NCBI GenBank assembly: GCA_965217865.1
Contig: CBDCJO010000002.1
Coordinates: forward strand, 4,608,001 to 4,672,000
Direction: 5' to 3'
Length of the DNA: 64,000 nucleotides
Source: Candidatus Latescibacterota bacterium
GTDB taxonomy: Bacteria; Latescibacterota; UBA2968; SICM01
Positions 26,250 through 46,244 of the stretch are shown here, in pieces. Position numbers and translations under genes: made by a program. Position 1 is the stretch's first letter. Each line of letters starts with the position of its first letter. The notes beneath the pieces were generated by a model, which was not told where the DNA came from, did not search any database, and was given only the letters and a program-made list of their open reading frames with translations.

Positions 26250-29200
26250 TCAAGAATCATTCCTTCTGATGGGCAGTCTGATGGTCACGGTCGCACCTGT
26301 GCTCTGTTTGCTCTCAATGGAGATGTTCCCTCCGTGATCCTCGACGATCTTGCGGCTGATGGCCAACCCGAGACCCGAACCGGACGCCTTTGTCGTGAAG
26401 AACGGGTCGAAGATCTGGTTAAGGGTCTCTGAGGGAATCCCGGTTCCCGTATCGGCCACGGACACTTCGACAACTCCTTCGTTTCGGAGGGTGGAAACCT
26501 TCAGACTCCCTCCACCGGGCATGGCCTGAAGGGCATTCTGTATCAGATTCAAAAGTACCTGTTTCATCTGGGCGGGGTCGGCCACGACACCCGGAAGATC
26601 GGGTTCCATCTGTTTCTGTACGAGGACACGGTCTCCGTGAAGGACCCCCTTGAACAGGCCGAAGACGTCCTCTACCAGCTGATTCATATCGGTTGGCTTA
26701 AGATCGGGCGGGGTGGGTCGGGTGAAGCTGAGGGTGTCTGCCAGGAGTTTTTCCAGACGCTCGACCTCTTCGACGACGGCCCGTGCGTTGGCCTGTACGC
26801 GATTTGGTTTGGTCCCTTTGGCGATGGCGCGTGCGAATCCCCCGATGGTGGCCAGGGGGTTGCGGATTTCGTGAGCCATATTGGCGGACATCTCCCCGAC
26901 AACGGCCAGACGCTCTGACTTGAGCAGGTCATCCTGGGCTTGCTGGAGTTTTCGATAGGCCTCTTCCAGCTCCTGAATCTTGTCGGCCAGCTGGGCGTAG
27001 ACCTCCGCGTTCTCAACGGCCATGCCCGCCTGGCTCGCAAAGCTCGTCAGGAGCTGAACGGCTTTGTCTGATATCGGACGACCGCTGTAAAGGTTGTCCG
27101 CGATGACCGCCCCGACGGCTCTCTGCTTGGCGATCAGCGGGACGCAGACGAACTCCGGGGAGTTCAGGAGGTCGCGGAGTTCGGGGTTAACGTCCGGGTT
27201 GTTGAAAGCGTCTTTCACGTGGGTCGAGCTTTTTTCCTCTACAGCTTTGACGATCAAGTTTGAGGACTCCGAAAGGGGTATGTTGATCCGGTGAGCCAAC
27301 CGGGTCATCGGTTGTTCGTCACGTTCGGAAATCCGATCGTAGCCCGTCAGGATATCTTCGATGGTGTCGGTCTGTCCTGCCAGATTCGGGAGGCCTCCTC
27401 GTGGCTTCCCGGGCCGACGCCCATCTTACCCTCGATGACGTTCCGCTGCCGGTCGATCAAGAGCAGGATAGCTCGGTTGAAGCCGAGGGCGGTCCCGGCC
27501 GTCACACAGGTGAGGAGCGCATAAAGAAGCCGATCCAGTTCCAGGATGCCCTGCATCGTCTCGCTTACCTGACGGAGCATCGACAGCTGGTAAGCCTGTT
27601 CGACAATCTCGGTGACGTCCTCGAAAACAACGAGGGCAAGGCGCTCCTGTTCCCTTTCAACAGGTGTGATGAAGACGTTGAAGACCCGGCTCAGAAATTC
27701 CTCGATCCGATGAACGTTCATCAGATTCACCGATTTGCCTTCACGGATTGCCGTTGATATCGGCTTCAGGACATCGTCCCGCAGAAGGATGGAATCCGGG
27801 GCCACCTCGTAGAGGTTCCGGCCCTCCACATCCTCCCGGTCAAGTTCTCTCCGCTCGCAGTAGGCGTGGTTGACGGAGACGATTGTCAAAGCCTTGTCCA
27901 GGAACAGAAGGGGCATCGGAATGGTGTCGATGACGTGTTCATCGAATTCCTTCAGAAATTTCATGTCCTGATAGTGACGGGCGTTCTCGACTGCGTTGGC
28001 GATAAGGCTCGCCAGGATCTCAAGCGAAGTGATGTCGGGTTCATCGAAGGCCGCCGGCCTCTGGCTCTGGACATCGATGGCGCCGATGGTCCGATCCCCC
28101 GACTTGATCGGTACGCAGAGTTCGGATCTCGTTTCCCGTTCTTCGGGGAAGGCCAGAATGCGTCTGGGTTCCATGGCCACATCGTTGGCCAGGAGGACTT
28201 CCCCGTTTAGGGCCACCCATCCCACGATGCCGACGCCCATTTTCTGGCGGTATCCTTCCGATAGGAATTCTCCATAAGCCCCTTCGTGACCCCTGAGAAC
28301 GAGCTCTTCCGTCGTATCATCTAGGATAAAGACACAGACGTCATGGTATTCAAAGTTTCGCTGGATGGACTCTGCGGAGACGTGCATCAAATGGTCCGGG
28401 TCCAGGGTGGAGGAGACCAGCTGGGCGATTTCGCTGACAAGTGTGAGCTGTAGCGAGCGTTTGCGTTCCAACTGCAGGAGGTGAGCGATCTCATTTCGCC
28501 GTCTCACCAGTTCTTTTTCGGATTCGATCCGGTGGCTGATGTCGGAGACGACTCCCATGCTCCCGACGAGGTTACCTGCGTCATCGCGGAGGGGGACGCC
28601 GGAGATGGAGACGGGAATTCTCGTGCCAGACTTGGTGGTCAACGCCACTTCGTAAACGGAGGCGTCCCCATGATTGAAATGGTTTTCCATCTCGGACGCG
28701 GTTTTGTCCATGCTCTCGTTTTTGTAGATTAGAGAGACGTGCTGGTTGAGGGCCTCCTCCTTCGTGTAACCCGTGATCTCCTCCATTCGCCTGTTGAAAA
28801 AAGTGAAGCGGGATTCCCGATCAACTGTGCTGATTCCTTCGTTCATGGTCTGGACCAGAGTGCCATACCGTTCCTCAAAGGCTCGAAGCTCTCCGGTCAG
28901 GCCCCGATAGCGCAGTCTGTAGTATAGATCACTCACGCCGATCACGCTCTCATCGCTGTGGGTTTCGACCAGGGTGCACGCGATGCTCAGGTTTTGTTGG
29001 TCCCCGGGATAGACAGCGATCAGGGTGTCGATGATGGCCCTTTTTAGGGCGATCTGGGCCCTGGAGAGGTCCGCGGCGGTAAGTCCGCTGCTGATGGCCT
29101 CCTGCATCCCGAAACCGCCGACCTTTTCGGACCTGTCCTCCGTGTCTTCGAGGTGGGTGGTGAGGAGGACGAGGAATACCTCGCCGACCTGTCGTTGAAG

Positions 29201-29356
29201 AAGGGGGGAAGGATGGGGGAGTCGGGCGATCCGCCCGATCCATCGCTCCAGGATTTCCTCACGATGGATCTGGAAAAAGTCGATCAGCTCTGCGACAAAA
29301 GGCCAGCTGGCCTCGAAGGCGGATCGGATCTGGATTTTGGGGGATGTATCTGGCAT
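26250..29356 (-). pseudogene. Multi-sensor histidine kinase (helical N-domain, PAS, GAF, PAS, GAF, HisKA, HATPase), split by a frameshift
   Basis: ORFs 27347-29356 and 26250-27308 join across ~27370-27380 (IWQD / QTDTIEDILTGYD) inside the second GAF; AHEIRNPL, N box, DTGTG and GSGLGL present. Confidence 0.85.
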
Positions 29357-33086: not shown

Positions 33087-33400
33087 GGAAAGGCCTTGGA
33101 TCGGAAAAGCCGGGGTTCGTGATTCGTGGATAGGGGATCGGAAAACCCGAAATAACCTTTGACAATTTATCCAATAATTCGCATCGATCATTAACGAATC
33201 ACGAATCACGAATCACGAATCACGAATCACGAATCACGAATCACGAATCACGAATCACGAATCACGAATCACGAATCACGAATCACGAATCACGAATCAC
33301 GAATCACGAATCACGAATCACGAATCACGAATCACGAATCACGAATCACGAATCACGAATCACGAATCACGAATCACGAATCACGAATCACGAATCACGA
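33087..33400. repeat. Composite heptamer element copy 1: degenerate arm, conserved core and (ACGAATC)29
   Basis: Pure array 33194-33396; core 33157-33193; GGAAAGGCC/heptamer arm 33087-33148. Confidence 0.95.
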
Positions 33401-33406
33401 TTTTTT

Positions 33407-34486
33407 CTATTCAACCTCCGGTCCGATGCGAATCGAATGCGTTTTGATTAAACATGATATCGTCTGGTTTACCTCCAGTCCCAGGTCCTCGATCGCCTCC
33501 GGGGTTATCTTTACCGCCAATCGTTTTCCCACATCCACGTAAATCAGCCCCCTTCCCTCCACTTTAGACACTTCCAAAACGCGTCCTTCCAGGGTATTCC
33601 GCACGCTCAACCCCGATGGTACCTCCCGTGAGAGAATGATGTCGTCCGCACGGATGCCGATGAAGATCTTACCCCCGGGTGGACGGTCGCAGTATGGGAT
33701 TTTCAGATTCTGTCCGGCGAAACGAGCGATGCTGACCCCCCCGGTCGCATCTCCGGATATGACTTCCACGGGAAGGACGTTCTCGAACCCGTGGGCTTCC
33801 ACTAAGGGCAGTATGTCCGGGTGGTGAGCGATGTCGAAGAAATCCCCGTGGGCAACCATCTTTCCCTCTTTCAGAACGATGACCTGTCCCGTCAACTCCA
33901 GGATTTCCGCTACGGAGTGGCTGACGTAGAGGACGGGAATACCCAGGTCCGACCGGATGTGGCGGAGGTAGGGTATGATGCGGTCTTTCAAACCCTGATC
34001 CAGGGAGGCCAAAGGTTCGTCCATTAACAACAGACGCGGGGAGGTCAGGAGCGCCCTGCCCATGGCGACACGCTGTCGCTCTCCCACGGAGAGGCTACCC
34101 GAACTTCTATTCAGAAGCGAGCGGAGCTGAAGCAGGTCGACGATCCGGTTGATTTCAAATCGTCGGTTGTCCGGTTTCTGGAGGTGGTATCCGTATCGGA
34201 GGTTCTTTTCGACAGTCAGGTGTGGGAAGAGGAGGTCATCCTGAAAAACATACCCGATCCCTCTTTTCTCGGGGGGAAGATCGATTCCTGATGCTGAAGA
34301 GAAGACAACGTCGTCGTCTATGCGGATTTCCCCCCAGTCCGGTCGGAGGAGTCCGGCTACCAGATCGAGGAGGGTGCTTTTTCCAGAGCCTGACGGTCCG
34401 AAAACCGCGGTCACAGGATAATGGCATACGGCGTCCACGTGGAGAGTGAAATTGGACCGATTGTGTGCCAGCCTGACAGATAGCAT
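33407..34486 (-). CDS. modC: Molybdate ABC transporter ATPase
   Basis: GPSGSGKST, VFQD..LFPH, LLMDEP, C-terminal TOBE. Confidence 0.95.
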   Translation of the reverse strand: MLSVRLAHNRSNFTLHVDAVCHYPVTAVFGPSGSGKSTLLDLVAGLLRPDWGEIRIDDDVVFSSASGIDLPPEKRGIGYVFQDDLLFPHLTVEKNLRYGYHLQKPDNRRFEINRIVDLLQLRSLLNRSSGSLSVGERQRVAMGRALLTSPRLLLMDEPLASLDQGLKDRIIPYLRHIRSDLGIPVLYVSHSVAEILELTGQVIVLKEGKMVAHGDFFDIAHHPDILPLVEAHGFENVLPVEVISGDATGGVSIARFAGQNLKIPYCDRPPGGKIFIGIRADDIILSREVPSGLSVRNTLEGRVLEVSKVEGRGLIYVDVGKRLAVKITPEAIEDLGLEVNQTISCLIKTHSIRIGPEVE

Positions 34487-34489
34487 CGA

Positions 34490-35176
34490 TTACTTTCTCT
34501 TCGTATAACGGGAGATCCACTCGCCGATCATGAGTGCCCCAAGTGAAAGAGCGATCGAAAACACGGCCAGACGGGCTGCAGCGGTTTCCCCTTCTGGCTG
34601 GTTGAGGTAGGTGAAGATTGCCAGTGGAATGGTTCGCGTCTCTCCGGAGATATTGGAGACGAATGTCATAGTCGCCCCGAATTCCCCCAGGCTTCTTGCA
34701 AAGGTCAGGAGAGAACCGGCCAGGACACCCGGAAAGGCCAGGGGAAGCGTCACTGTGAAGAAAACGCGCAGAGGGCCGGCGCCGAGGGTACGCGCGACTC
34801 GTTCCATCCGGGGATCGATCCCTTCGACGGCCAGACGGACGGCGCGAAGCATCAGCGGAAATCCCACGACTGCCGAGGCCAGTGCGGCCCCCTTCCAGGA
34901 GAATGCGATCTGGAGGCCCAACGAGTCTTCGAGTAGCCTTCCCAGGAACCCCCGCCGGCCGAAGAGGAGCAGGAGGAGATAACCTGTAACGACCGGGGGC
35001 AGGACCAGGGGCAGATGGCACAGTCCGTCGAGGAGGACTTTCCCCCGAAAATCGATCCGGGCGAGAAGCCAACCCAGGAACACACCCGGAGGCAGGCTGA
35101 TCAATACGCAGAAGATCCCGACCCGAACCGAGAGAGCAATGACTTTCCATTCTTCAGGTGTGAGGAGTGACATCAT
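34490..35176 (-). CDS. modB: Molybdate ABC transporter permease
   Basis: LPLVLPPVVTGY, FARSLGEFGAT. Confidence 0.96.
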   Translation of the reverse strand: MMSLLTPEEWKVIALSVRVGIFCVLISLPPGVFLGWLLARIDFRGKVLLDGLCHLPLVLPPVVTGYLLLLLFGRRGFLGRLLEDSLGLQIAFSWKGAALASAVVGFPLMLRAVRLAVEGIDPRMERVARTLGAGPLRVFFTVTLPLAFPGVLAGSLLTFARSLGEFGATMTFVSNISGETRTIPLAIFTYLNQPEGETAAARLAVFSIALSLGALMIGEWISRYTKRK

Positions 35177-35296
35177 AAAGATATTGAGAATTGAAGGTTG
35201 GAGATCGACTTCGGCCCCACCGCCTTCCCGGAATTCAGAATTTAGAATCAGGGAGTCCCTCTACTCCTTTCGACTCCGGACTCGCGACTCCGGATT

Positions 35297-36103
35297 TTAA
35301 TTCTGACTTCTGACTCCGGTATCCTGTTTTAAGAACTCAAACCCTTGCTCTTCAAAAACCTTCCCGGCCTCATCCGATTGAAGCCATTCTATCAACAGGC
35401 GGACGTTTCCTGTATTGCGGTCTTTCACGACAGCCACCGGGTAAACGATCCGGTCGTGAGATTCCGGGCCCAGGGTTGCGATCACGCTTACCTTCGAACT
35501 GATGGCCGCATCCGTGGCATAGATCAACCCCGCGGAACACTCCCCGCGCTCGACGTAAACGAGAGCTGCGCGCACGTCCAGTCCCGGGGCGATCCGTTTC
35601 GAAAGGGGACCCCACCATCCAAACCACCGAAGGGCCTGCTCGGCATAGATTCCGGCCGGAACGTGGGAGGGGTCCCCAATGGCGAGCATGCCCCGAAACG
35701 AGGCAGGAAAGTCGAATCCTTTCCGGGGAACCATCCGGAATTCCTCCCCAACAGGGGCCACGATGACCAGGCCGTTGCCGAGAAGATCGAACCGGGTTCC
35801 CTCCTCGATTCGGCCTTGAGTTTCGAGATAATCCATCCATTCCGGGCTTGCAGAAAAGTAGATGTCGGCCGGGGCCCCATTTTCGATCTGTTTGGCAAGT
35901 GTGGATGAACTGCCGAAGGCGAATTTCAGTTCGAACCCGGCCTGTGCTTCAAACGCCGGGGAGAGATCCTGGAGCACATCCGTCAGGCTTGCGGCTGCGT
36001 AAACCCGCACGGATCGGGCATCGATGTCAAGGGGGAGGATCCATTGGGAGGTGGAGAAGGAGATCAGAACGAGGGTTCGCGTGATGATGGAAAGGTGGCT
36101 CAT
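35297..36103 (-). CDS. modA: Molybdate ABC transporter substrate-binding protein
   Basis: AAASL, GSSSTLAKQI, VPAGIYA, YATDA. Confidence 0.95.
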   Translation of the reverse strand: MSHLSIITRTLVLISFSTSQWILPLDIDARSVRVYAAASLTDVLQDLSPAFEAQAGFELKFAFGSSSTLAKQIENGAPADIYFSASPEWMDYLETQGRIEEGTRFDLLGNGLVIVAPVGEEFRMVPRKGFDFPASFRGMLAIGDPSHVPAGIYAEQALRWFGWWGPLSKRIAPGLDVRAALVYVERGECSAGLIYATDAAISSKVSVIATLGPESHDRIVYPVAVVKDRNTGNVRLLIEWLQSDEAGKVFEEQGFEFLKQDTGVRSQN

Positions 36104-36151
36104 AGAACGGGCAATTATGGAAGTTAGGGGAGCGGAAACGTCGGGAATGAC

Positions 36152-37240
36152 CTATCTCCACGGCACGCTCACGCCCAGTTCGTCCGCCAGATCGGCAAGC
36201 TTCTCCAGATGTTTTTTGTGGATGGGGATGCCCGATTCACCCCAGGCCTGCTTCTTCATCCACTCGATCTCTCCCGGGAGATAGATCCGTTCGACGCCTT
36301 CCGACCTTTTGGACTCCCGTACGGTTCGGATGGTCCGGTCCACTTCTTCGATGAATTCGTCCAGGGAGATGAAGCAAGCGATGTTGATCGCGTAGAAGAA
36401 ATGACTCGCCCTGGCCTGTCCGTGGAACTCCTTCCTGTCCCGATGGCATGTGGAAAGGCCGAAAGGGAGGATACCCCCCATCACGTCCATGATCATCGTC
36501 AGGCAATATCCCTTGACCCCTCCGAAAGGAAAAAGGATGCTCGCTTCGGCTGGGTTGTTTGTCGGGAGGGCATCCTTGTTCAGCGCCCAGTTGTCGGCCA
36601 AGGGGATCCCGTAGAGTTCCATCGTGGTAATCCGCCCCCACGCTGACACTCCGCAGGCCATGTCCAGGACGATCGCAGGCTCCTCCTTCGCGGGGATGGC
36701 ATAGGCCATCGGGTAGTTCCCCAACACACCGGAATTGCCGCCGTAGGGAGCCACCGCGGGGGTGCTGCTGGATACACAGAAACCGATCATCCCGTGTTCC
36801 AAAGTCCGCATTACAAAGTTGGACCCGGCTCCGAAGTGGCTGCTGTTCCGCACACCCACCGCGGCGATACCGGTCTGTCGGGCTTTGTCAACGGCGAGTT
36901 CCATCGCACGGGTTCCTGTCAAGTGCCCGAGCCCACTGCCCCCGTCGACCAGCGCATACGAGGGGCCTTCTTTGACGACCTGAATTTCCGGTTTTGGGTT
37001 CTTACGACCACCCTTTATTTGTGAGATATATGTGGGAAGGAGCCTGGTGCCGTGTGAGAATACCCCCCGAAGATCTGTTTCGACCTGAAGGGCTGACACG
37101 AGGCCTGCATCTTCCGGGGAAAGGCCAACCCTCAGATAGATCTCCACGGCAAGATCCCGCAACTGCTCGGCACGGACAAGCTGTTCATCGGGGCTCGGGA
37201 TTGTGCGAAAGTTCGGATCTGGTGCGGTGTAATCAATCAT
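36152..37240 (-). CDS. Ldh_2 (malate/L-lactate/ureidoglycolate dehydrogenase) family oxidoreductase
   Basis: DLRGVFSHG, NSSHFG, GGVKG, YLPGE; start set at ATG 37240 because the tracked extension lies in the repeat arm. Confidence 0.9.
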   Translation of the reverse strand: MIDYTAPDPNFRTIPSPDEQLVRAEQLRDLAVEIYLRVGLSPEDAGLVSALQVETDLRGVFSHGTRLLPTYISQIKGGRKNPKPEIQVVKEGPSYALVDGGSGLGHLTGTRAMELAVDKARQTGIAAVGVRNSSHFGAGSNFVMRTLEHGMIGFCVSSSTPAVAPYGGNSGVLGNYPMAYAIPAKEEPAIVLDMACGVSAWGRITTMELYGIPLADNWALNKDALPTNNPAEASILFPFGGVKGYCLTMIMDVMGGILPFGLSTCHRDRKEFHGQARASHFFYAINIACFISLDEFIEEVDRTIRTVRESKRSEGVERIYLPGEIEWMKKQAWGESGIPIHKKHLEKLADLADELGVSVPWR

Positions 37241-37259
37241 AACGTGAAAAGGAAAGGGT

Positions 37260-37673
37260 GAAAAAAGCCGTGGATCGTGGTTCGTGACTCGGGGATCGGA
37301 AAGGCCGTCGATCGTGGATCGTGATTCGAGGATCGAGGATAGGAAAGGCCAATGATCCGAATCCTTCAAAAAAACTTTGACTATTCGTCAAATAATTCGC
37401 ATAGGCGTCATTAACGAATCACGAATCACGAATCACGAATCACGAATCACGAATCACGAATCACGAATCACGAATCACGAATCACGAATCACGAATCACG
37501 AATCACGAATCACGAATCACGAATCACGAATCACGAATCACGAATCACGAATCACGAATCACGAATCACGAATCACGAATCACGAATCACGAATCACGAA
37601 TCACGAATCACGAATCACGAATCACGAATCACGAATCACGAATCACGAATCACGAATCACGAATCACGAATCA
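37260..37673. repeat. Composite heptamer element copy 2: degenerate arm, conserved core and (ACGAATC)37
   Basis: Pure array 37414-37672 overlapping the rsgA stop codon; core 37375-37413; arm 37260-37357. Confidence 0.95.
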
Positions 37674-38654
37674 TGGCCTTTGCCTGATGTTCCGATAACT
37701 CGTGTGCCTGCTCTGATCAACCTGACCCGAAGACACCGCCGCCTTCACGGCACAACCCGGTTCCTCTTCGTGAACGCAGTCGCGGAACCTGCAGGATCCG
37801 ATCAGGGGCCGCATCTCCGGAAAGAGATGGTGCAACTGATTCACGTCGACGTCCCAAAGGCTCATGTCCCGGAGGCCGGGGGTATCCCCCAACAGGCTGA
37901 TCCCTCCCAGGGTGTAGAGCTCTGCGTGAGTGGTGGTGTGGCGGCCGCGACCGGTGGCCTTGTTGATGGACTTGACCCGGCGGCCCAGGCCAGGCTCCAG
38001 GGTGTTTAAGAGCGTCGTCTTACCGGTGCCGGAAGGCCCCAGGAAAACGGCGACCGTTTTCTGGACGGATGCGCGGACAGAATCCACACCGTCCCCATTC
38101 TCAGCACTGATCAGGAGGATCCGGTACCCGATCTTCTCATACAGGCCGACCAACGGAGCCGTGATGGATGGTTCTACGAGGTCGGTTTTGTTTACGCAGA
38201 TCAGGACGGGGATATCTTGAAGTTCACATATGGCCAAAAACCGATCCAGCATCTCCAGGTTCAGGTCGGGTTCCCGAATTGAGAAGACGAGTACGGCCAG
38301 GTCTACGTTTGCGATGAGGGTCTGTTCGAGGGGACGTTTTCCCGCCGCCCTCCGGGAGAACTTGTTCCGGCGGTTTACGACATGGTAGATCATCCCGGTG
38401 CCGTCACCTACATCATCGAATTTTACGAAGTCTCCCACGGCCACAGGGCTGGTTGAACGAATGCCGCGAACCGCCGTAACACGTTTGCGAATGGAGGATG
38501 TGTCCGCGGTGGAATATTCGATCACTTTTCGCAGTTTGCTGGAAACGGAACAATTGATCAGGGCGTCCCCCGAAGAAACGGTATATCGACCGAGGTGCTC
38601 CTGCATGACACGACCGATGGGATGGCCCGAAAGGGTATCGTCCGGAGTATTCAT
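37671..38654 (-). CDS. rsgA: Ribosome small subunit-dependent GTPase A
   Basis: NKTD, GPSGTGKTT, GRHTTT, DTPG, CRFRDCVH..EPGC. Confidence 0.96.
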   Translation of the reverse strand: MNTPDDTLSGHPIGRVMQEHLGRYTVSSGDALINCSVSSKLRKVIEYSTADTSSIRKRVTAVRGIRSTSPVAVGDFVKFDDVGDGTGMIYHVVNRRNKFSRRAAGKRPLEQTLIANVDLAVLVFSIREPDLNLEMLDRFLAICELQDIPVLICVNKTDLVEPSITAPLVGLYEKIGYRILLISAENGDGVDSVRASVQKTVAVFLGPSGTGKTTLLNTLEPGLGRRVKSINKATGRGRHTTTHAELYTLGGISLLGDTPGLRDMSLWDVDVNQLHHLFPEMRPLIGSCRFRDCVHEEEPGCAVKAAVSSGQVDQSRHTSYRNIRQRP

Positions 38655-38854
38655 TAGAAGGGATATGCAAAATGAAAAATGCAAATTGTAAACTTCAAAT
38701 TTACCGCGCCCAGCTCCCTCAAAGTTACAAAAACCGCGGTTTCAATTTGAGATTTATAATTTGCACTGAAATACTTTTAGTTTGACTCCGGGTCTCCCAA
38801 CTCCGGGACTTGCATTTCTGGATTCGGACTCATGTCTCCTGTGTTCTGCTTTTG

Positions 38855-39940: not shown

Positions 39941-40019
39941 GGAAGAAAATGAAAAATGGAAAGTGAAAAATGTAAATTTTAATTTAGGGACTTCAATTAT
40001 CCCGGGTGAATCAAGGTAG

Positions 40020-40361: not shown

Positions 40362-41132
40362 ATGAAAAGGGAGATGCAGGGGTCAGGCGTTAGAATTCAG
40401 AATGAAAGACACTTGATTTGGATCTCCTCCTGGTTCCGGACTCCTGGATTCTTGATTCCCACGCTTTTATTTTTCCTGCCTTCGATCGCATCCTCCCAGG
40501 TGATCGACGTCCTCCCGCAGGCCACCGGAGGAGATCTGGAGGGTGTGTGGGTCGCCGACTCTTCCGTTGTTCGGGTTTACGTCCCTCCGGATCTTCCGGA
40601 CCTCAATCTTGTCTTTTCCGGGATGGTCATCGGGCGGTTTACGGTGAACCCCGATAGTACCTATTTCGCTAACTACACCGTTGAAGGTAGCGGTTCAATC
40701 GATCTCCTGGGCAGGAGGTCGTTCGATCTCAACGGCGTGTCTGCGGCGGCCGGACGTTATTCGATCCTCGGGACCGATGTCATGGTTACGGGTTTGGTTG
40801 ATTCCAAATCCGTGGATACCGTGGGCTACAGCGTGGCCGGTGATTCTCTGATGCTCCTGCTTTCATTTCGCGAGTCCTTGCTCGTAAAATTCGGATACAA
40901 TTTCATTCTTCTTCTCCCGTTCAAGAAGACGTCCGTGACGGCCGGTTCTGCGGATTTCGACTCAAACGGACGCGTCGATTTGGATGATTTTTTCGTCTTT
41001 GCAGCGAGCTTCGGCACGGATCGGGACAGCCCGGACTTCGATCTGCGGTTCGACATGAACTCCGATGGCTCGATCGACTTCAATGATTTCTTCATATTCG
41101 CGGAACAGTTTGGACAAGCGAGTGAAACGTGA
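40362..41132 (+). CDS. Secreted protein with a C-terminal dockerin-like double Ca-binding motif
   Basis: Signal-like segment ...LLFFLPSIASS-Q; ADFDSNGRVDLDDFFVFAASFG...FDMNSDGSIDFNDFFIFAEQFG; start uncertain. Confidence 0.75.
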   Translation: MKREMQGSGVRIQNERHLIWISSWFRTPGFLIPTLLFFLPSIASSQVIDVLPQATGGDLEGVWVADSSVVRVYVPPDLPDLNLVFSGMVIGRFTVNPDSTYFANYTVEGSGSIDLLGRRSFDLNGVSAAAGRYSILGTDVMVTGLVDSKSVDTVGYSVAGDSLMLLLSFRESLLVKFGYNFILLLPFKKTSVTAGSADFDSNGRVDLDDFFVFAASFGTDRDSPDFDLRFDMNSDGSIDFNDFFIFAEQFGQASET

Positions 41133-41195
41133 AACGGCAAACGTGAAAAAGGCAGACTGACCTACGAACTCCCCTCCCAAAGAAATATTATCCCT

Positions 41196-42388: not shown

Positions 42389-42501
42389 TCGAAGGGGACT
42401 CAGTCACTATGTTAAAAGTAGTTGAGCCTCACTGCTTGAGAGGATATGTTTATTGGAAATCCCGTAGATTCACAATAACTCTCTCTCACAGGAGGCTCAA
42501 G

Positions 42502-43566
42502 ATGGGAAGATATTCGAAACAGGCCTGGAAAGGCAAGTGTCTTTTTATGGTTATCGATCTTCATCGCAAAAGTTGGCACGTGACCATTCGATCCGAAGAT
42601 GGTTTGGTCCTTTTTTCCAACAACATTGGTGGCCGTTGGGAGGACCTGGAGCGATTGTTGTCCCGGTTCTCCGACGCGGGACAGATCTCGGTCGTCTACG
42701 AGGCAGGATATTTTGGGTTTTGGGTATATGATCGGCTGATCGAATATGGGGTAGATGCGCGGGTGACGCCTCCTCATTTGATTCCTCAACGCTCTGGTAG
42801 TCGGGTGAAAAATGATCGTCTGGATAGCGGAAAGTTAGCTGAGTGCCTACAGTCTGGCCAGTTAGAGGCCATATATGTTCCGACTGTGGAAGAGCGTGCG
42901 CATCGGCAAGTGTCCAGGCGTCGTCGTCAGTGCATCGGCAATCGGGTTCGGACTCAAAATCGGATCAAAGCAGAGCTTCGGGTGAATGGGATTGAATTGC
43001 CTCGAGAATCGAGTGGCAAATGGAGCCAGGTCTTTATCGATAAGTTGAGAGCCTTCAGGTTTCAGAATCGGTATCAGCAAGAATGTTTTCAGACCTTGCT
43101 GAATGAATTCGACTTCCAGTCAGAGCAGATCGAAAAGCAGACGAACCTGCTGAAGGAACTTTCAAAAAGCGATGGATATCGGGATCGCGTGGAGATCCTG
43201 ACCTCTACGCCAGGTATCGGTTGGATCAGTGCCATGGAGCTCCTGTTGGAACTGCAGGACGTCGCACGATTTCGAAAGGCTGATCAGTTGGCCGCTTATA
43301 TAGGCTTAACGCCTTCACAATATTCGAGTGGGGAAAACCTCCGGTTTGGACACATCACGCGTCAGGGCAGATCCAGCTTACGGTGCCTGTTGGTTGAGGC
43401 CGCATGGCGAGTCATCAAAAAAGATGGTGCGATGAGAGAAAAGTATGACCGGATCAAAACTCGGGCCGGATCCAAACGAGCTATTGTCGCGATTGCCAGG
43501 ATTCTAATTATTCGGCTCCGAGGGATCCTGATTCGCAAAGAGCCCTATGTGCTGGGACTGGTTTAA
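42502..43566 (+). CDS. IS110 DEDD transposase/recombinase
   Basis: AGGAGG RBS; IDLH, YEAG, KNDRLD, PGIG, GLTPSQYSSG, AIAR. Confidence 0.95.
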   Translation: MGRYSKQAWKGKCLFMVIDLHRKSWHVTIRSEDGLVLFSNNIGGRWEDLERLLSRFSDAGQISVVYEAGYFGFWVYDRLIEYGVDARVTPPHLIPQRSGSRVKNDRLDSGKLAECLQSGQLEAIYVPTVEERAHRQVSRRRRQCIGNRVRTQNRIKAELRVNGIELPRESSGKWSQVFIDKLRAFRFQNRYQQECFQTLLNEFDFQSEQIEKQTNLLKELSKSDGYRDRVEILTSTPGIGWISAMELLLELQDVARFRKADQLAAYIGLTPSQYSSGENLRFGHITRQGRSSLRCLLVEAAWRVIKKDGAMREKYDRIKTRAGSKRAIVAIARILIIRLRGILIRKEPYVLGLV

Positions 43567-44778: not shown

Positions 44779-46119
44779 TTGAAGGGTCTTTTGCAGTTGC
44801 TGGAAGATCGGGAGAAGATCGGCAATCCCCTGCGGGTCGGCCTGATCGGGGCGGGAAAATTCGGATCCATGTTTCTGAGCCAGGCCAGGCGGGTGCCAGG
44901 CCTTCACGTGATGGGGATCGCGGATCTTTCCCTTGAAAAAGCCCGAGAATCGCTCCTGCGGATTGGATGGCAGCAGGAACAATTTTCGGCAAAGGGCTTC
45001 GACCGGGCGCTCAAAACCGGGTCCACCTGTCTGACTGATGACAGCAGTGCCCTGATCAAGGCGGAAGGGTTGGATGTCCTGGTGGAGGCCACGGGCGACC
45101 CTGCCGCAGGAATCCGCCACGCCCTGGCGGCATTTGAATCGGGGAAGCACGTCGTCCAGGTCAGCGTTGAGGCGGACGCGCTGGCAGGATCTCTCCTTGC
45201 CCGAAAGGCTGAAGCCGCGGGCGTGGTCTACAGTATGGCCTACGGTGATCAGCCTGCCTTGATTTGCGAACTGGTCGAGTGGGCCCGCGTCAACGGTTTT
45301 GAGGTCGTGTGCGCGGGTAAGGGCACCAAGTACCTCCCGATCTACAACAGGTCAACACCCGAAAAGGTCTGGGAGCATTATGGCTTCGACAGCGAGGCTG
45401 CCGCAAAGGGGGGGTTAAACCCAAAGATGTTCAACTCGTTTCTGGACGGGACCAAGTCCGCGATTGAAATGGCCGCCGTGGCCAACGCAACGGACCTGGT
45501 TCCCCAGTCCGATGGTTTGGGCTTTCCTCCGTGCAGTGCCAAAGACCTTCCGAACGTCTGCCGGCCTGAAGCAGAAGGCGGCCGGCTTTCGCACAAAGGG
45601 ACGGTCGAGGTGGTGTCCTGCCTGGATCGGGATGGACGCCCGGTCGAACCGGACTTTCGCTGGGGGGTCTATGTGACCTTCGAAGCCCCGAGCGAATATG
45701 TCAAACGCTGCTTTGTCGAATATGGGATGAACACAGATACGACAGGACGCTATGCGGCCATGTACAGACCCTATCACATTGTGGGTCTAGAATTGACTTT
45801 CGGCATCCTTAAAGTGGGTCTACGCGGCGAGGCCACAGGTACGCCTACAGGATTCATTGCGGATGTTGTCGCCCGGGCGAAGCGGGATTTACAGGCCGGG
45901 GAGGTCCTCGACGGGGAAGGCGGGTACAGCGTTTACGGTGTGCTCGCCCGGGCCGAGGAGGCTATGAAGGTTGGAGGGCTGCCGATTGGACTCGCCCGTG
46001 GCGTGAAGTTGAAAAGGGGGATCGTGAAGGATCAGACGGTTCGCTGGTCGGACGTTGAATATGATGAGAAGGATCCCGCGGTGCGATTCCGGAAGGAGAT
46101 GGAAGGGGAAGGGAAATGA
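44779..46119 (+). CDS. Homoserine-dehydrogenase-like NAD(P) oxidoreductase with a C-terminal SAF domain
   Basis: GAGKFG, GDQP, GKGT, SFLDGTK, LDGEGGY. Confidence 0.88.
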   Translation: MKGLLQLLEDREKIGNPLRVGLIGAGKFGSMFLSQARRVPGLHVMGIADLSLEKARESLLRIGWQQEQFSAKGFDRALKTGSTCLTDDSSALIKAEGLDVLVEATGDPAAGIRHALAAFESGKHVVQVSVEADALAGSLLARKAEAAGVVYSMAYGDQPALICELVEWARVNGFEVVCAGKGTKYLPIYNRSTPEKVWEHYGFDSEAAAKGGLNPKMFNSFLDGTKSAIEMAAVANATDLVPQSDGLGFPPCSAKDLPNVCRPEAEGGRLSHKGTVEVVSCLDRDGRPVEPDFRWGVYVTFEAPSEYVKRCFVEYGMNTDTTGRYAAMYRPYHIVGLELTFGILKVGLRGEATGTPTGFIADVVARAKRDLQAGEVLDGEGGYSVYGVLARAEEAMKVGGLPIGLARGVKLKRGIVKDQTVRWSDVEYDEKDPAVRFRKEMEGEGK

Positions 46120-46244
46120 AAAATGAAAAATAAAAAGTTCAAATTGCAAAATCTAAGGATACAGTGACACAGACGGAACCCGTGTCAGAGCTTAGACCCA
46201 AAAGACAGCCGAGGTGGTTCTCGGCTGTCTTTTGGTTTGGGCCC

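Follow-up and report, generated by a model that had tools for sequence, protein, structure and literature searches.

The 64,000-nucleotide stretch of a Candidatus Latescibacterota genome analysed here (the window; contig CBDCJO010000002.1, positions 4,608,001 to 4,672,000) carries two copies of a composite non-coding element, each consisting of an arm of degenerate heptamers, a conserved core, and a long, perfect array of one heptamer unit. The two belong to a gene-less inverted-heptamer family with 31 copies in the genome. The core has a promoter-like geometry that would place the transcription start (+1) at the first base of the array, and repeat units are likely added at this predicted start. 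A mechanism is put forward tentatively, in which the array would grow by 7-base slip-back at the predicted start, probably on replication forks moving co-directionally with transcription. The copies in the window and their flanks are as follows.

33087..33148, + strand: left arm of copy 1, G-rich degenerate heptamers with 9-mer punctuation, read from the sequence; the arm type is common to most copies
33149..33193, + strand: core of copy 1, with an A-rich tract, a -35-like hexamer (33159-33164) and a non-canonical -10 position (33182-33187)
33194..33400, + strand: pure heptamer array of copy 1, 29.6 units; the predicted +1 is its first base, 35 bp past the -35 start
33407..34486, - strand: modC-like ABC ATPase, convergent on array 1; flank, outside the element
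35177..35320, no strand assigned: core-less inverted heptamer hairpin in the modA/modB gap, of the genome-wide background class
37260..37350, + strand: left arm of copy 2, with no alignment to strains X6 and X11
37351..37413, + strand: core of copy 2, with a -35-like pentamer (37377-37381) at a spacing of 37 rather than 35; the core end differs in X11
37414..37673, + strand: pure heptamer array of copy 2, 37.1 units; about 2.4 in X11 and at least 4 in X6
37671..38654, - strand: rsgA, its stop codon supplied by the end of array 2; flank

A repeat scan of the window gives 100% matches and zero indels for both arrays; their full lengths (30 and 37 units) are values of the assembly, contigs from other runs reaching about 4 units in. 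The original prediction of a twice-repeated core and pure array is borne out by alignment, in which 33157-33193 and 37375-37413 are homologous, and so is the grammar it described for the arms, with 9-mers followed by one and four opposite-polarity degenerate heptamers in copy 1 and by four and five in copy 2. It also placed both arrays at the stop codons of minus-strand genes; the distances hold (a 6-bp gap between array 1 and the modC stop at 33407; overlap of array 2 with the rsgA stop, 37671-37673), although in the core-to-array direction the arrays end at these codons instead of beginning there. Nor does the tie extend to the family: the next gene downstream is convergent in only 15 copies and co-directional in 16, which makes the stop-codon tie local, and the median array lengths of the two orientation classes (16.7 and 5.0 units) do not differ significantly (p = 0.15, 31 copies). 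The capacity to fold back is modest: the arms are roughly complementary and the predicted fold of copy 2 is moderate (z = -3.4), whereas copy 1 folds no better than shuffled sequence (z = 0.10).

The genome assembly (G000) comprises two contigs, C1 and C2 (6.43 Mb, 96% complete, 9.3% contaminated), on which genes were called with a simple in-house predictor. A profile search for the core recovers 31 copies and the other half of one split copy, and a covariance model agrees; the element is a family and not a two-copy local duplication. Each layout of arm, core of about 40 bp, and pure heptamer array differs chiefly in the last part, which ranges from 1.3 to 38.7 units across the 31 copies. The array ends 3-4 bases into a unit in 24 of them, which points to a minimal element that closes with 1.4 units and thereby contains a 3-base direct repeat. 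Expansion is linked to the core: 15 of the 16 pure heptamer arrays of at least 10 units in the genome sit behind one, a 10-nt seed has reached at least 4 units at 20/30 sites behind a core and at 1/55 elsewhere (Fisher p = 4e-11), and core match (leave-one-out) correlates with array length among the family copies (rho 0.56, p = 0.001). Together with the strain polymorphism described below, these findings uphold the proposal that the element is non-coding and dispersed, its degenerate arm being old and its pure arm the product of polar expansion. One copy (L055, C2:5252673-5253279), in which an IS200-type insertion sequence (IS) splits the core, has only 2.3 units; the inserted element is itself represented in the genome by about 13 full or near-full copies and about 15 internally deleted derivatives of about 240 bp.

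The core likely spread between hairpin sites through replacement or conversion among copies. Target-site duplications were not found in the 31 copies, whose left ends are approximate (the longest shared flank word averages 4.61, against 4.55 in mismatched pairs). As the end of a peptide, the core gives no codon signal (14 synonymous versus 41 non-synonymous changes, p = 0.36); its RNA structure amounts to 5 pairs with zero covariation, and Rfam yields no match at the gathering threshold and one chance match (E = 4.1). Loss of mismatch repair was rejected, mutS being present in the genome.

The repeat unit is of local (cis) origin and is copied within each locus. At C2:4522805, a normal core and an ordinary arm accompany 17.4 copies of a variant that departs from the usual unit at two positions, the last distal unit being a one-change intermediate; the 18.9-unit array at C2:776852 is preceded by a duplication of 37 bp that covers -20 to +17. 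Local amplification of a variant unit argues against two sources of new units, one RNA template shared in trans and the degenerate arm. Copying from the arm is further opposed by the expansion of an arm-less array (C2:5077428, 6.4 units) and a core-less one (C1:339818, 12 units). The left arms are built from the same heptamer family, and their pure runs never exceed about 4 units. Older units lie distally, and growth appears from this order to be core-proximal.

Two features were missed by the original prediction: the promoter-like geometry of the core and the replichore polarity of the element. The first was assessed with a host promoter model (-35, 17 bp, TA-type -10) learned from 789 sites away from repeats. 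Conservation within the core is highest at a -35-type box that is preceded by an A-tract, and the distance from the start of this box to the first array base is 35 bp in 18/31 copies and 34-37 bp in 25/31. The box scores a median of 4.4 of 10.1 bits against the host model. The -10 region, conserved within the family, fits the model poorly, and the core therefore fails to qualify as a primary-sigma promoter: the -35 hexamer and the upstream A-tract are present, and a -10 hexamer of the host consensus type at 17 bp is not. A generic sigma-70 scan likewise places zero sites at the core. The genome has 31 sigma factor matches, and six of the eight scanned are RpoD/RpoS-like (C2:2919184, 2976157, 5203639, 3058551, and 3879565; C1:538105), one of them directly upstream of dnaK. 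The core is a predicted promoter, perhaps for one of these six. A heat-shock-type promoter was considered and rejected, as groES and dnaK bear ordinary host promoters and none of the eight scanned sigma factors reaches the RpoH cut-off.

Arrays that lack the core can also begin at a predicted start site. Among core-less arrays of at least 4 units, a host-type promoter starts exactly 35 bp upstream at 4/34 ends (p ~2e-6, against a background of 0.0026 per offset); among those of at least 6 units in this genome, 3/6 start at a predicted +1 (p ~4e-6), all three on the leading strand. In relatives, where 161 array ends were scored for an upstream promoter, one of the two arrays of at least 6 units does so (L078, in genome G001 of another genus). 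This 7.9-unit array, built of a variant unit of its own, starts 6 bp past the -10 of a near-consensus 18.5-bit promoter with no relation to the core, and it retains older units distally.

The second feature, polarity, was judged by assigning the leading strand from third-position GC skew, taken as the mean of the two gene directions. The core-to-array direction coincides with the leading strand in 29/31 copies, including 16/17 long ones (p = 4.6e-7); the control values are 242/432 for sampled genes and 8/13 for IS200 copies. More widely, the genome contains 383 degenerate period-7 tracts, which fall into about eight families, and only 21/383 lie inside genes; a count by period gives 386 tracts for period 7, compared with 4-22 for periods 5 and 8-11 and 80 for period 6. 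The purine-rich strand of period-7 tracts is leading also beside lagging-strand genes (27/38). Within C2:0-1.9 Mb the GC skew flips sign several times, and most element copies located there have short arrays.

In the mechanism proposed here, RNA polymerase engaged at the core would stall or reprime a fork that travels co-directionally, close to +1. Using the 3-base repeat in the minimal 1.4-unit seed, the new strand would then slip back by 7 bases, and units would accumulate at the +1 end of the array, replication-transcription encounters being the presumed trigger. Two precedents are available: according to a review, indels in co-directional conflicts concentrate at promoters and 5' regions and the replisome can prime on a transcript (PMC8303131), and at Haemophilus influenzae hmw1A, deletion of the promoter blocks heptamer length change (PMC12721329).

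A number of observations weigh against slip-back at a promoter. The core -10 scores a median of -4.0 of 8.4 bits against the host consensus, with only the -11 and -10 bases matching; a core-like promoter occurs at only 3 other intergenic sites and is not the one used by groES or dnaK. Spacing has a modest effect (at least 9 units in 12/18 copies at exactly 35 bp versus 4/13 others, p = 0.07), and copy 2 of the window has 37 units despite a spacing of 37. Several cores look intact yet carry fewer than 2.5 units, and since kin copies are non-independent, the p-values of the family overstate. Some of the core-less +1 cases were spotted by eye ahead of the test; 3-unit arrays in this genome have no promoter peak (4/159 ends); arrays of at least 4 units in relatives match a promoter at 2/84 ends only; and support for +1 anchoring from outside this genome is one locus. 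Finally, the purine-rich strand is leading in 284/336 scorable period-7 tracts of the whole heptamer class. The polarity of the element follows this genome-wide heptamer rule, and a bias common to the class does not single out promoter collisions. A heptamer set published for Xanthomonas had no leading/lagging preference (PMC4692102).

These points bear on the alternative that survives best, although we consider it somewhat unlikely: plain replication slippage within a small family of mobile hairpins. A master copy whose pure array was already long would have spread, and its descendants would have drifted to greater and smaller lengths with transcription playing no part, the core being passive and its -35 a coincidence or the site of an unrelated protein. 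Slippage accommodates the non-canonical -10, the weak effect of spacing, and the replication bias of heptamer tracts genome-wide; it predicts the constant end phase seen in 24/31 copies, and it is the standing hypothesis for heptamers (PMC4692102, as far as its accessible text goes). It does not predict, however, that unrelated long arrays start at the +1 of host-type promoters, that older units are distal in two genomes, or that left arms are capped at about 4 pure units.

Templating by RNA in cis is a less probable route, to which we give little weight. A transcript from the first array base would be copied by a reverse transcriptase (RT) or an RNA-using polymerase and realigned on the 3-base repeat, in the manner of telomerase, on the lagging strand. 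The left boundary of the array would then be the predicted RNA 5' end and the minimal 1.4 units a template plus alignment region; the unit is local and growth proximal, the polarity suits a lagging-strand primer, and DRT10 provides a bacterial case of RNA-templated tandem-repeat synthesis (PMC12632851, available passages). Yet the duplication from -20 to +17 requires a DNA template, and the candidate enzymes are poorly placed. Three RT matches occur in the genome, 12-49 kb from any copy and in IS-rich regions; the two of them that were scanned are DRT4-like and UG21-like, not of the UG17/DRT10 type, and look truncated or split. A UG17-type RT linked to the copies was not found, with two of the three RTs scanned and SLATT not searched for. 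The three RT loci (C2:451227, 814301, and 487128) comprise two near-identical DRT4-like genes beside IS elements and one UG21-like gene in two frames.

The other trans factors suggested by the original prediction fare no better. A four-helix-bundle gene (TIGR02436/PF05635) is found between the arms of no copy, the loop being 40-60 bp, and the nearest lies 18 kb from any copy; GxxExxY genes have 0 matches in the genome. A linked RT, four-helix-bundle, or GxxExxY gene was thus not found, with RTs at least 12 kb and four-helix-bundle genes at least 18 kb away and GxxExxY absent. Four four-helix-bundle cassettes are present (5 matches, two of which look broken), with other heptamer families; a four-helix-bundle protein is encoded at C2:3991550. 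Heptamer hairpins have also inserted in frame within a loop of histidine-kinase ATPase domains, where they add repeat peptides (C2:3991027 and loci L023, L026, L027, and L029 of G001).

Inflation of short arrays by the assembly, or their polishing to purity, is very unlikely. No spanning read was seen, copy 2 has about 2.4 units in X11, the assembly is 9.3% contaminated, and skew is fragmented in C2:0-1.9 Mb; against this, cores that are nearly identical precede arrays of 1.3-38.7 units, one of the long arrays is made of a unit of its own, polarity tracks the replichore, and X6 also has at least 4 pure units. Array length varies between strains. A 566-base contig of X11 links 37007-37256 to 37675-37871, differing from the window at 7 of 447 bases. 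Between these flanks it has 119 bases versus 418 in the window, and the last 30 of them hold about 2.4 units behind a core end that differs from the one in the window. X6, a strain of about 99% identity from another study, shows 47 differences over 3.8 kb; its arm at copy 2 is unalignable, and at array 2 it has at least 27 pure array letters. Both conspecific strains with informative contigs bear an element at the site. At array 1, contigs of X1, X3, and X6 (three studies) run 46-49 letters past 33420, about 4 units into the array as judged from record lengths; X1 is identical over the stretch and is possibly the source sample. The core-less hairpin at 35177..35320 is 14 bp shorter in X6, and an X3 strain has no alignment there.

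Fold-back templating, in which the 3' arm would be extended on the degenerate left arm and which the original prediction listed first among its mechanisms, is barely credible despite the rough complementarity of the arms and the fold of copy 2, as a pure product is impossible from a degenerate template, the variant-unit copy keeps an ordinary arm, the arm-less C2:5077428 and the core-less C1:339818 and L078 have all expanded, and copy 1 folds no better than shuffles.

The search of relatives that the original prediction called for did not recover the core: a pattern search found it in 0/40, a strict exact pattern in 0 GTDB contigs, BLAST returned array or arm pieces only (1/60), and the covariance model gave only weak matches (2/60 at E 0.03 and 2/150 at E 0.002-0.003, with 31-79 candidates scored per genome). 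This negative covers the sets searched and not close sister species, no relaxed core scan of metagenome or genome contigs having been made. A metagenome search with rsgA returned relatives at 35-37% only, and a 10-unit pure array of this heptamer was not found in the 167 further genomes of the phylum that were searched, which gave 3 partial matches. The orthologous rsgA site is a 25-bp gap in G001 and a 126-bp hairpin of another heptamer in a second relative (G002), and the modC end carries two further heptamer types in L098 and L105; such sites have thus been repeatedly reoccupied or rewritten.

A second small family of three copies (C2:3371205, 793087, and 1691849) has a 6-base unit and otherwise the same layout, with a punctuated arm, a shared promoter-like core, and arrays of 3.7-7.3 units that start 30-35 bp past the -35 box. 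In the window, short degenerate heptamer tracts of other families lie at gene borders (38665-38685, 39945-39976, 41122-41148, and 46114-46136), an IS110-family transposase lies at 42409-43566, and a sensor histidine kinase at 26250-29356 is read as two successive frames with 38 bp between them and may be a split gene. Contig ends carry repeats of a segment of 6-7 kb (C2:1-7302, C2:3288774-3296505, and the end of C1); with this and the skew flips in C2:0-1.9 Mb, rearrangements or misjoins are possible.

The family offers 31 natural replicates in one genome. They share a core and form a graded series of lengths, they include natural mutants of the core and a copy split by an IS, they are polymorphic between strains, and a variant unit dates the order of unit addition. 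Slip-back at a promoter makes a sharp prediction: +1 is the first array base, growth occurs at the +1 end, and the orientation is co-directional. The arrays would lengthen predicted 5' untranslated regions (UTRs) or antisense RNAs at about 30 loci, the rsgA and modC neighbourhoods included. It is conceivable, if unlikely, that long pure heptamer arrays in bacteria at large are written at transcription start sites on co-directional replichores, with the nascent RNA 5' end or the initiating polymerase setting the boundary at which the first 7 bases are copied repeatedly into the chromosome, and that a dispersed promoter-like element gives this genome a 31-site generator of them. Our literature search, which left most subscription papers uncovered, found no description of the core element or of dispersed heptamer arrays anchored at +1.

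Cyanobacterial short tandemly repeated repetitive (STRR) sequences are grouped with the intergenic inverted heptamers of Nostoc. The family described here has the marks of the inverted-heptamer class: an excess of period 7, intergenic location, opposite-polarity arms near gene ends, and variability between relatives. In the available passages on Xanthomonas and Nostoc, the 7-bp units are likewise intergenic, often in inverted pairs near gene ends, and vary in length and sequence among close relatives; a conserved loop is not described in those passages, and the present family departs from that set in its promoter-like core, its 29/31 polarity, and a single pure arm of up to 39 units (PMC4692102). 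The same passages treat an excess of heptamers in bacteria as known and its cause as still a hypothesis. Four-helix-bundle cassettes also have a G- or purine-rich arm first and the complementary arm second; the present family differs from them in its gene-less loop and in a core that lacks any codon signal.

DRT10, a telomerase-type system, makes pure repeats on a template that spans about 1.4 units and includes an alignment region; as presented in the accessible text, it uses one non-coding RNA and protein priming, whereas here the unit differs by locus, the arrays are chromosomal, and neither of the two RTs scanned has UG17 as its best match (PMC12632851). A single shared template of the DRT10 type was rejected on the local amplification of variant units. 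Borg tandem repeats resemble the arrays in being perfect, recent, and fast-changing, with partial-unit flanks, but in the passages available almost every Borg unit is unique and the unit lengths are many, in contrast to one 7-bp unit behind a shared core (PMC9879509). The tests run place the family outside the four-helix-bundle cassettes, the DRT10 systems, and the canonical promoters.

The closest parallel in function may be the heptamer simple sequence repeat (SSR) in the 5' UTR of H. influenzae hmw1A, a locus at which transcription-dependent length change has been shown (PMC12721329, available passages). Both have a pure array downstream of a promoter, predicted in the present case, and a complementary arm; at hmw1A, length change needs transcription, while the evidence here is positional. 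That system is a single contingency locus under host selection, with its arm downstream within the RNA and a dependence on RNase III, whereas the family has 31 dispersed copies, an arm upstream of the predicted start, and convergent genes facing about half of its members. In sum, the element resembles a heptamer SSR with a putative link to transcription, like that of hmw1A, set within the class of gene-less hairpins with inverted heptamers.

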